Sequence record: LR877332
Length of the DNA: 64,000 nucleotides
From: Shigella phage vB_SsoM_JK08
Strand: one strand, 5' to 3'
Each line of letters opens with the position of its first letter. Position 1 is the stretch's first letter. The notes beneath the pieces are model-generated. The model ran no database searches. It saw nothing but the letters and a program-made list of their open reading frames with translations, and was not told the DNA's origin. Below, piece after piece: positions 4,889 through 5,716 of the stretch. Made by a program: the position numbers and the translations under genes.

Positions 4889-4964
4889 TGGTCGAGGCAG
4901 TAGGGATCGAACCTACGACCCAGGACTTAGAAGGTCCTTGCTCTTCCTTCTGAGCTATGCCTCG
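4889..4964 (-). tRNA. tRNA-Arg (anticodon TCT), CCA encoded
   Basis: Manual cloverleaf: acceptor CGAGGCA/TGCCTCG, D-stem GCTC/GAGC, anticodon stem AGGAC/GTCCT with loop CTTCTAA, T-loop TTCGATC. Confidence 0.85.
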
Positions 4965-4968
4965 TATT

Positions 4969-5043
4969 TGGCGGACGTGATAGGATTCGAACCTATAACC
5001 AATCGCTTAACAGGCGATCGCTCTGCCATTGAGCTACACATCC
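4969..5043 (-). tRNA. tRNA-Asn (anticodon GTT), CCA encoded
   Basis: Cloverleaf: acceptor GGATGTG/CACGTCC, D-stem GCTC/GAGC, anticodon loop CTGTTAA, T-loop TTCGAAT. Confidence 0.8.
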
Positions 5044-5047
5044 AAAT

Positions 5048-5134
5048 TGGTGGGGAGTGGTGGAGTCGAACCACCCGAGTCGCAATGACAATGAATTTAC
5101 AGTCCACACCGCTACCTCTACGGGATAACTCCCC
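5048..5134 (-). tRNA. tRNA-Tyr (anticodon GTA), long variable arm
   Basis: Acceptor GGGGAGT/ACTCCCC, anticodon loop CTGTAAA, long variable arm, T-stem GGTGG/CCACC; D-arm and anticodon stem less canonical. Confidence 0.6.
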
Positions 5135-5143
5135 AAATTAATT

Positions 5144-5218
5144 TGGTGGCCCTGGGTGGAATTGAACCACCATCTGGCGATTATGAGTCGCTTGCTTGAA
5201 CCTTCCAGCTACAGGGCC
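5144..5218 (-). tRNA. tRNA with anticodon CAT (Met, or Ile if lysidine-modified)
   Basis: Acceptor GGCCCTG/CAGGGCC, anticodon loop CTCATAA, T-loop TTCAATT; occupies the position of T4 tRNA-Ile. Confidence 0.75.
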
Positions 5219-5219
5219 T

Positions 5220-5295
5220 TGGTGCTGATTGACGGAATCGAACCGCCGACCTTCTCATTACAAGTGAGTTGCTCTACCTACTGAGCTAAATCAGC
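5220..5295 (-). tRNA. tRNA-Thr (anticodon TGT)
   Basis: Acceptor GCTGATT/AATCAGC, D-stem GCTC/GAGC, anticodon loop CTTGTAA, T-loop TTCGATT. Confidence 0.85.
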
Positions 5296-5300
5296 AAAAC

Positions 5301-5390
5301 TGGCGGAGGCGATAGGATTTGAACCTATGAGTCGCCGGAGCGACTGCCGGTTTTCAAGACCGGTGCATTAAACCACTCTGCCACGCCTCC
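5301..5390 (-). tRNA. tRNA-Ser (anticodon TGA), long variable arm
   Basis: Acceptor GGAGGCG/CGCCTCC, anticodon stem CCGGT/ACCGG with loop CTTGAAA, variable-arm helix AGTCGC/GCGACT, T-loop TTCAAAT. Confidence 0.85.
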
Positions 5391-5392
5391 AG

Positions 5393-5466
5393 TCTCCGTG
5401 GCAGGATTTGAACCTACGACATTCTGCTCCCAAAGCAGACGCTCTACCAAACTGAGCTACACGGAG
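5393..5466 (-). tRNA. tRNA-Pro (anticodon TGG), CCA not encoded
   Basis: Acceptor CTCCGTG/CACGGAG, D-stem GCTC/GAGC, anticodon stem TCTGC/GCAGA with loop TTTGGGA. Confidence 0.85.
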
Positions 5467-5476
5467 TAAATTAAAT

Positions 5477-5550
5477 TGGAGCGGATAATGAGAATCGAAC
5501 TCACATCATCAGATTGGAAGTCTGAGGTAATACCATTATACGATATCCGC
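5477..5550 (-). tRNA. tRNA-Gly (anticodon TCC)
   Basis: Acceptor GCGGATA/TATCCGC, anticodon stem TCAGA/TCTGA with loop CTTCCAA, T-loop TTCGATT. Confidence 0.85.
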
Positions 5551-5555
5551 AAATT

Positions 5556-5642
5556 TGGTGCGAGAAGTGGGACTCGAACCCACAAGGAAATCATTCCGCA
5601 GCATTTTAAGTGCTGTGCCTTTACCAATTTGGCCATTCTCGC
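5556..5642 (-). tRNA. tRNA-Leu (anticodon TAA), long variable arm
   Basis: Acceptor GCGAGAA/TTCTCGC, anticodon stem CAGCA/TGCTG with loop CTTAAAA, T-loop GTTCGAGT; one nt from tRNA-Gln. Confidence 0.85.
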
Positions 5643-5643
5643 G

Positions 5644-5716
5644 CTGGGAATAAAGGACTCGAACCTTTGCATCCTGGAATCAAAATCCAGTGCCTTACCA
5701 ACTTGGCTAATTCCCA
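5644..5716 (-). tRNA. tRNA-Gln (anticodon TTG), CCA not encoded
   Basis: Acceptor TGGGAAT/ATTCCCA, anticodon stem CTGGA/TCCAG with loop TTTTGAT, T-stem AAAGG/CCTTT. Confidence 0.85.

Follow-up and report, generated by a model that had tools for sequence, protein, structure and literature searches.

Sequence comparison identifies the ten-gene tRNA cluster of Shigella phage vB_SsoM_JK08 as a probable segB-free allele of the T-even tRNA operon

Shigella phage vB_SsoM_JK08 carries ten transfer RNA (tRNA) genes within positions 4889–5716 of the 64,000-nucleotide (nt) stretch of sequence record LR877332 analysed here (hereafter referred to as the window). Our analysis indicates that this cluster is very probably the T-even tRNA operon in a form devoid of the homing endonuclease gene segB, which would supply tRNAs for phage codons, present a target for SegB, and encode a CAT-anticodon tRNA (hereafter the CAU tRNA) of the tRNA-Ile2 type. 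This explanation draws on a comparison with the corresponding loci of T4, T2 and T6, on an exact match to the preferred SegB site, on codon usage, and on the identity elements of the individual tRNAs.

A ten-gene tRNA operon of the T-even kind

ARAGORN detected ten tRNA genes in the whole 64-kb window, all on the minus strand between 4889 and 5716 and none elsewhere, in full agreement with the coordinates, order and anticodons that a preliminary description had obtained by folding the letters by hand. In the order of transcription, the genes encode tRNA-Gln (UUG; 5643–5716), tRNA-Leu (UAA; 5556–5642), tRNA-Gly (UCC; 5477–5550), tRNA-Pro (UGG; 5392–5466), the class II tRNA-Ser (UGA; 5301–5390), tRNA-Thr (UGU; 5220–5295), the CAU tRNA (5144–5218), which we assign to the lysidine-dependent, AUA-reading tRNA-Ile2 type, the class II tRNA-Tyr (GUA; 5048–5134), tRNA-Asn (GUU; 4969–5043) and a T2-type allele of tRNA-Arg (UCU; 4889–4964). 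The CCA end is encoded in eight of the ten genes and is absent from those for tRNA-Gln and tRNA-Pro. The spacers span 0–10 nt; the upper bound of the 1–10 nt given previously thus stands, and the lower bound falls to zero because tRNA-Gln directly abuts tRNA-Leu in the ARAGORN prediction, an adjacency that matches the Gln–Leu dimeric precursor arrangement of T4.

The Rfam tRNA model RF00005 passes nine of the ten genes with scores of 59.9 to 74.1 bits (67.4 for tRNA-Gln and the maximum for tRNA-Asn) and E-values of 1e-10 to 1e-14, the exception being tRNA-Tyr. Moreover, the window contains ten copies of the T-loop motif GGTTCRANTCC, where 0.17 would be expected, and eight of the ten lie within the cluster, an excess that excludes chance as its source.

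The region from 4500 to 5800 is 99.9% identical to Escherichia phage vB_EcoM-fFiEco06 and to about 30 further Tequatrovirus genomes, and it matches 1,015 phage records, of which 458 span at least 80% of it. The same ten tRNAs appear, with tRNAscan-SE 2.0 scores, in the fFiEco06 record, which labels the CAU gene Met. Homologues of Trna.2 and e.8 flank the cluster on either side, with the strand and order found in T4. The window belongs to a Tequatrovirus (T-even) phage, and its tRNA operon is of the T-even kind. The ten-gene cluster is already known, as it is annotated in hundreds of public Tequatrovirus genomes, and the arrangement is present in about 430–460 public phage records.

An alternative cassette in place of segB

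The T4 operon (NC_000866) has the order Gln, Leu, Gly, Pro, Ser, Thr, Ile, segB, Arg, rnaD and rnaC, and it shares its genomic position, strand, gene order and downstream rnaD and rnaC with the window, in line with the T4-like order noted in the preliminary description. Where T4 has the 666-base-pair (bp) segB gene, the window has the tRNA-Tyr and tRNA-Asn genes, which stand alone between the CAU tRNA and tRNA-Arg with spacers of 4–9 nt and no segB open reading frame (ORF). These two genes are therefore extra relative to T4, as had been proposed. A tblastn search of the window with T4 SegB returned nothing in the cluster and one distant homologue at about 45.8 kb.

A gene-by-gene comparison revealed an uneven relationship between the two operons. 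The T4 tRNA-Gly is identical to that of the window at 74 of 74 positions, as are those of T6 and T2, and the T4 tRNA-Leu (86 of 87 positions), tRNA-Ser and tRNA-Thr are 96–99% identical to their counterparts (96% for tRNA-Thr). The T4 tRNA-Gln is 87.8% identical, with compensatory changes in the anticodon stem, and tRNA-Pro is 84% identical, with paired changes in the anticodon and T stems. By contrast, identity falls to 61% between T4 tRNA-Ile and the CAU tRNA and to 62.5% between the two tRNA-Arg genes. In addition, the T4 tRNA-Ser and tRNA-Ile genes lack an encoded CCA, whereas the Ser and CAU genes of the window include it.

We considered that the window might hold the T4 operon plus a two-gene insertion, and rejected this idea because the CAU and Arg genes that flank Tyr and Asn are only 61–63% identical to those of T4, whereas Gly, Leu and Ser are 97–100% identical. 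As the flanking genes are of a different type from those of T4, the segment represents an alternative cassette rather than an insertion. The title of the preliminary description had counted the CAU tRNA among the additions to the T4 set; T4 does have a CAU tRNA, tRNA-Ile, at the same position, although the copy in the window is a different sequence type, and the two belong to different sequence lineages. The direction implied by "extending" the T4 set is likewise reversed, as the cluster matches the segB-free allele of T2 and of most sequenced relatives. Among public phage records, 434 hold at least 80% of the Tyr–Asn segment and 126 hold at least 80% of the T4 Ile–segB–Arg block, so that the eight-tRNA state of T4 is the less common one.

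In T2 (AP018813), the order is Gln, Leu, Gly, Pro, Ser, an ORF, Met, Tyr, Asn and Arg, and segB is absent. The CAU, Asn (75 of 75 positions), Arg (76 of 76), Ser and Gly tRNAs of T2 are 100% identical to those of the window, and tRNA-Tyr is identical at 86 of 87 positions. T2 has nine tRNAs, as a 402-bp ORF replaces tRNA-Thr between Ser and the CAU tRNA; a 351-bp ORF follows tRNA-Arg, and the Gln and Pro alleles show 89% and 85% identity to those of the window, respectively. Taken together, these comparisons indicate that the cluster is a segB-free, T2L-type allele of the T-even tRNA operon.

T6 (MH550421) combines features of both forms. Its order is Gln, Leu, Gly, Thr, CAU, Tyr, segB and Arg, with segB in the place of tRNA-Asn. 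Its tRNA-Tyr is identical to that of the window at 87 of 87 positions and likewise follows the CAU tRNA, whereas its CAU and Arg tRNAs are of the T4 type: the T6 "tRNA-Met" has the sequence of T4 tRNA-Ile with an encoded CCA added, and the T6 and T4 tRNA-Arg genes are identical to each other and 62.5% identical to that of the window. T6 lacks Pro and Ser, and its "Thr" gene (positions 648–722 of the MH550421 segment compared) is a hybrid that starts, at its 5′ end, with the tRNA-Pro sequence (C)TCCGTGTAGCTCAG and continues as tRNA-Thr. Such a structure points to a loss of Pro and Ser through recombination between the two genes. By inspection, the acceptor stem of the hybrid looks mismatched, and a functional tRNA may not result.

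Two further observations concern individual alleles. The Gln and Pro genes of the window are distinct from the alleles common to T4, T2 and T6 (84–89% identical, with paired stem changes), and the anticodon loop of tRNA-Gln, UUUUGAU, is that of E. coli glnU, whereas T4, T2 and T6 have CUUUGAC. A common origin of the window tRNA-Arg with the tRNA-Arg of the stx2-adjacent cluster, of T5 or of a Vequintavirus phage was also considered and dropped, given identities of 63–68%.

A predicted SegB homing site

The 3′ part of the tRNA-Asn gene contains a 27-bp match to the preferred SegB homing-endonuclease site of T2L tRNA-Asn, extending on the minus strand (4967–4993) from the T-arm through the CCA plus 2 nt. 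This sequence, GGTTCGAATCCTATCACGTCCGCCAAA, is present as a single exact copy in the window. Exactly five positions (G6, A16, G18, A26 and A27) set it apart from the 3′ end of the tRNA-Ser gene in the window, and the same five positions separate the Asn site from the Ser site in T2L (PMC2330249).

T2L, RB1 and RB3 lack segB (Brok-Volchanskaya et al. 2008, PMC2330249). In crosses of T4 with T2L, segB was inherited at 94% efficiency, and a T2L stretch of about 1,250 bp with the genes for tRNAs Met, Tyr, Asn and Arg was almost completely excluded; for T2L, SegB has been demonstrated to cut the locus and to convert it to the T4 form in co-infected cells (PMC2330249). By analogy, and given the sequence identity with T2, the SegB protein of a co-infecting T4-type phage would cut the tRNA-Asn gene of vB_SsoM_JK08 and convert the allele to the T4 form.

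The distant SegB homologue is a 205-residue ORF on the plus strand (45730–46347) that is about 31% identical to T4 SegB (tblastn E = 1e-19) and is probably another Seg-type homing endonuclease. A 502-residue ORF, helicase-like by eye, lies directly downstream (46350–47858).

Probable codon supply by the ten tRNAs

The G+C content of the window is 35.9%. Codon usage was compared between a set of 19,564 codons from 69 mechanically chosen ORFs of the window and a set of 14,748 codons from 42 annotated genes of E. coli K-12. The highest phage-to-host ratios were those of AGA (9.7), ATA (6.1), GGA (4.1), TCA (4.0), ACA (3.7) and ACT (3.6), followed by AAT (3.1), TTA (3.1), TCT (2.7), CCT (2.6) and TAT (2.3). 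All of these eleven most enriched codons can be read by the ten-tRNA set, assuming host-type wobble modification of U34, and the set of cognate codons outranks the remaining codons (Mann–Whitney p = 2e-5). Furthermore, the most enriched amino acids are Tyr (1.6-fold), Asn (1.54-fold) and Lys. As the top-ranking codons are readable by the set and Tyr and Asn are themselves enriched, codon supply accounts for the whole set, the two "extra" genes included.

The tRNA unit of T4 is transcribed as a polycistronic RNA and matured by RNase P and 3′ processing enzymes. By analogy with T4, polycistronic precursors of the window operon would be cut by the host RNase P and 3′ processing enzymes into mature tRNAs, with the host CCA-adding enzyme completing tRNA-Gln and tRNA-Pro. 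The products would supplement the host pool for AGA, AUA, GGA, UCA, ACA, UUA, CAA and CCA, which are much commoner in the phage, and would supply AAU and UAU reading through tRNA-Asn and tRNA-Tyr.

Identity of the CAU tRNA and tRNA-Tyr

The preliminary description had left the CAU tRNA as either Met or a lysidine-modified Ile, and our comparisons resolve this choice towards the Ile2 type. Its best match was a gene annotated as tRNA-Ile in 5,424 of 5,426 complete E. coli genomes, and it is 76% identical to K-12 ileX (tRNA-Ile, CAU) and 82% to a prophage tRNA-Ile in the tRNA cluster next to stx2, as compared with 63% to the elongator genes metT and metU, which represented tRNA-Met in this comparison. 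Its acceptor stem has G1–C72, G2–C71, C3–G70, C4–G69 and C5–G68 with A73, whereas tRNA-Met carries U4–A69 and A5–U68. A passage of PMC12514573 that cites Ikeuchi 2005 names C4:G69 and C5:G68 as dominant identity elements of E. coli TilS. The CAU tRNA has the CAU anticodon, C4–G69, C5–G68, A73 and an identical anticodon loop in common with the tRNA-Ile2 (k2C34) genes ileX and ileY and the stx2-adjacent tRNA-Ile. Its anticodon-stem pairs 28–31/39–42 and loop (GCGA-CUCAUAA-UCGC) are identical to those of ileX, and all five anticodon-stem positions on each side match the stx2-adjacent tRNA-Ile. The D-loop and T-stem differ from those of ileX and the stx2-adjacent gene, and position 27:43 of the CAU tRNA is an A–C mismatch. 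That the CAU tRNA is an elongator tRNA-Met supplying AUG decoding is very unlikely: ARAGORN and the public records based on tRNAscan label it Met from its anticodon, and the 2008 study of T2L also names it tRNA-Met (PMC2330249), but the identities, the pairs at 4–69 and 5–68, the under-use of ATG (phage-to-host ratio of 0.78) as against ATA, the second most enriched codon, and the annotation of the T4 tRNA at the same position as tRNA-Ile all speak against it, and we rejected it on identity, these base pairs and codon usage. We conclude from the sequence that the CAU tRNA is of the Ile2 type and infer its modification and charging: host TilS would turn C34 into lysidine, leading to charging with isoleucine and to the reading of AUA.

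tRNA-Tyr raises a different question, as it falls below the 29-bit gathering score of RF00005 and finds its best Rfam match in tRNA-Sec (30.9 bits against a threshold of 47). ARAGORN nevertheless supports it, along with tRNA-Asn, with unchanged anticodons, and tRNAscan-SE 2.0 gives it 51.2 bits, the lowest tRNA score in the fFiEco06 record, whose Tyr–Asn segment is 100% identical to that of the window. The gene has a 3-bp variable arm, an anticodon stem (GUGGA/UUCAU) with two G–U pairs and a D-arm that does not pair in the canonical register, and so the atypical features that the preliminary description ascribed to it also hold. A decaying pseudo-tRNA that is carried passively would account for the low score, the G–U pairs and the odd D-arm, and would fit a single-sequence minimum-energy fold that is not a cloverleaf (z-score −1.1) and the report of comparatively low stability for T6 tRNA-Tyr in fragment sequencing (PMC13096335). 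Such decay is nonetheless extremely improbable, because the gene is conserved in T6 (identical) and T2 (one difference) and because an alignment of ten homologues, drawn from E. coli and six phage groups (the copies in the window, in T2, on a plasmid, in two Vequintavirus phages and in one Certrevirus, one Felixounavirus, one T5-like and one Jiaodavirus phage, together with E. coli tyrU), yields, by RNAalifold, 22 pairs of which 13 show compensatory changes, with the acceptor, anticodon, variable and T stems kept. The D-arm pairs best as a slipped 3-bp stem, CCG/CGG, replaced by CUG/CAG in T5 and in a T5-like phage; this register was found by inspection, the MAFFT/RNAalifold consensus having left the D-arm unresolved with three rows shifted by one column, and with one type of compensatory variant it is tentative. 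Moreover, northern blots detect T6 tRNA-Tyr, which also rescues infection (PMC13096335), and the T5 record notes that the homologue is an effective amber suppressor once its anticodon is replaced. We therefore rejected the pseudogene on the covariation among the ten homologues and the identity with the expressed T6 tRNA, and regard tRNA-Tyr as a genuine, although atypical, class II tRNA.

A blastn search found no match to the tRNA-Tyr gene on any E. coli chromosome even at E = 10, whereas about 270 records of E. coli plasmids hold tRNA-Tyr genes that are 87–92% identical to it, and a recent capture from the host chromosome was rejected on this basis. The gene is a member of a phage-borne family that also occurs in five other phage groups and on these plasmid records, and the variable arms of this gene and of T5 tRNA-Tyr are identical over 18 nt. 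The listed plasmids with a homologue are 72–109 kb in size; the one inspected, NZ_CP024264 (positions 3921–4471 of the segment compared), has an Asn–Tyr–Thr–Ser cluster in phage-like surroundings, among genes for a DNA ligase, an integrase and a PhoH-like protein, and is probably a phage-plasmid. The adjacency of Asn and Tyr recurs in NZ_CP024264, Felixounavirus and T5-like phages.

The labelling of CAU tRNAs varies among records. Several T4, RB55 and RB59 records (OZ209023, KM607002 and KM607003) give the T4 tRNA-Ile (CAU) the label tRNA-Met, and the T2-type CAU tRNA is labelled Met in T2, fFiEco06 and G9062. The Met label on these CAU tRNAs is a systematic annotation error in T4 and its relatives.

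Codon supply and anti-defence

Several points weigh against the explanation of the cluster as a codon-supplying, segB-free T-even operon. The codon ratios derive from the gene samples described above rather than from whole genomes or expression-weighted sets, the reading of NNU codons by U34 tRNAs presumes cmo5U of the host type, and AAC (0.64) and UAC (0.79) are less used by the phage than by the host. In the laboratory, the tRNA region can be dispensed with (PMC2330249), Tyr and Asn are not needed by T4, and tRNA-Tyr misses the Rfam threshold. The expression, processing and modification of these tRNAs in vB_SsoM_JK08 are predicted. Finally, the nuclease Septu cuts T6 tRNA-Tyr too, so that the help that this tRNA gives is one of dosage rather than resistance (PMC13096335).

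This last point belongs to a different account of the operon, in which the chief reason for keeping Tyr, Asn and perhaps Thr is anti-defence rather than codon supply: as spares, they would replace or out-compete host tRNAs cut by Septu and retron-Eco7 PtuAB (Tyr) or by PARIS AriB (Asn and Thr). Septu cleaves tRNA-Tyr in the variable arm, and overexpression of T6 tRNA-Tyr, which has the same sequence as that of the window, or its SegB-driven amplification as tandem repeats, rescues T6 from Septu (Chihara et al. 2026, PMC13096335). Deletion of the T6 tRNA region raises sensitivity, and T5 tRNA-Tyr, whose 18-nt variable arm the window gene shares, is reported to resist cleavage by retron-Eco7 through its variable loop (PMC13096335). 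At positions 36–41, the window tRNA-Asn has UAAGCG where the host has UAAUCC, with G39 likewise in T5 tRNA-Asn, and tRNA-Thr has UAAUGA where the host has UAAUCA; the phage-borne distribution of tRNA-Tyr also fits. However, wild-type T6 with a single copy is still restricted, and its tRNA-Tyr is itself a Septu substrate (PMC13096335); cleavage of tRNA-Asn by AriB is weak and without ribosome stalling in vitro; and AAU and UAU rank 7th and 11th among the enriched codons, so that codon supply alone explains the presence of these genes. On balance, we consider anti-defence as the main reason for keeping them possible but rather doubtful. By analogy with the identical T6 gene, for which this role is known, tRNA-Tyr could still act as a spare for host tRNA-Tyr destroyed by immune nucleases such as Septu, while a corresponding role of tRNA-Asn against tRNA-cleaving immunity is a lead only. 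A stronger proposal, which we regard as unlikely, is that Tyr and Asn form a portable anti-defence pair in which tRNA-Asn, whose anticodon-stem 3′ strand departs from that of the host at the AriB cleavage site (G39 and G41), would resist PARIS-type nucleases, much as tRNA-Tyr would buffer attack by Septu or a retron; included in this proposal, at the same strength, is a wrong tRNA-Met label on an ileX-like tRNA-Ile2 in several hundred public genomes. Were the proposal true, SegB, in cutting tRNA-Asn, would be a selfish endonuclease that spreads by deleting an anti-defence gene, in a three-way conflict among T-even phages.

Downstream stable RNAs, terminator and promoter

Directly downstream of tRNA-Arg on the minus strand lies a homologue of T4 rnaD (species 2 stable RNA; 4768–4887, mapped from the T4 annotation), in which 101 of 121 aligned columns are identical to T4 and the fold z-score is −1.58. 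It is followed by a homologue of rnaC (species 1 stable RNA; minus strand, 4623–4761) that is identical to T4 at 137 of 139 positions and folds with −50.2 kcal/mol (z-score −4.55). The rnaC homologue contains a tRNA-like T-arm with GGTTCGAATCC at 4635–4645. The roles of rnaC and rnaD are still unknown (PMC3014915). Another T-loop motif, GGTTCAAATCC, stands alone on the minus strand at 31038–31048, distant from the cluster; ARAGORN found no tRNA there, and it is probably a chance match.

A hairpin resembling an intrinsic terminator (minus strand, 4549–4572; 10 bp, of which 7 are G–C pairs), followed by a run of T, is likely the end of the tRNA/rnaD/rnaC transcription unit, and the equivalent site is annotated as a putative terminator in the record of a relative. 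Weak promoter-like hexamers lie at 5851–5823, but we assigned no promoter, as the promoter scan gave 4 sigma-70-like matches compared with a mean of 7.3 in shuffled sequence.

Public records treat positions 4623–4887 inconsistently. The fFiEco06 record annotates two small coding sequences as "hypothetical protein" in the rnaC/rnaD stretch (corresponding to about 4512–4676 and 4679–4822 of the window), one of which crosses the terminator hairpin, and both calls are probably spurious; the G9062 record labels the rnaC part "tRNA-OTHER". In some close relatives (G9062, PYps35T, a15 and NBG2), about 520 extra bases are present downstream of rnaC, and those of G9062 (positions 215–791 of the MK373779 segment compared) include a 474-bp ORF and a second terminator with the same annotated length and predicted energy as the first.

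Discussion

The value of these results as a discovery is small, as the same genes are widely annotated, a map of the T2L version dates from 2008 and a functional study of the Tyr gene from 2026. Our analysis adds that the cluster would be the SegB homing-target allele, that its CAU tRNA, mislabelled Met in most records, is of the Ile2 type, and that its tRNA-Tyr is genuine, although atypical. The CAU tRNA should accordingly be annotated as Ile2 rather than Met, a change that affects analyses of phage codon usage and tRNA complements. The comparison also places the textbook set of eight tRNAs in T4 as a minority allele carrying a homing endonuclease. Finally, the SegB target of the phage is intact, so that co-infection with T4-type phages is predicted to eliminate Tyr, Asn and the Arg allele of the phage, and this predicted loss bears on the design of phage cocktails and on the persistence of anti-defence tRNAs.

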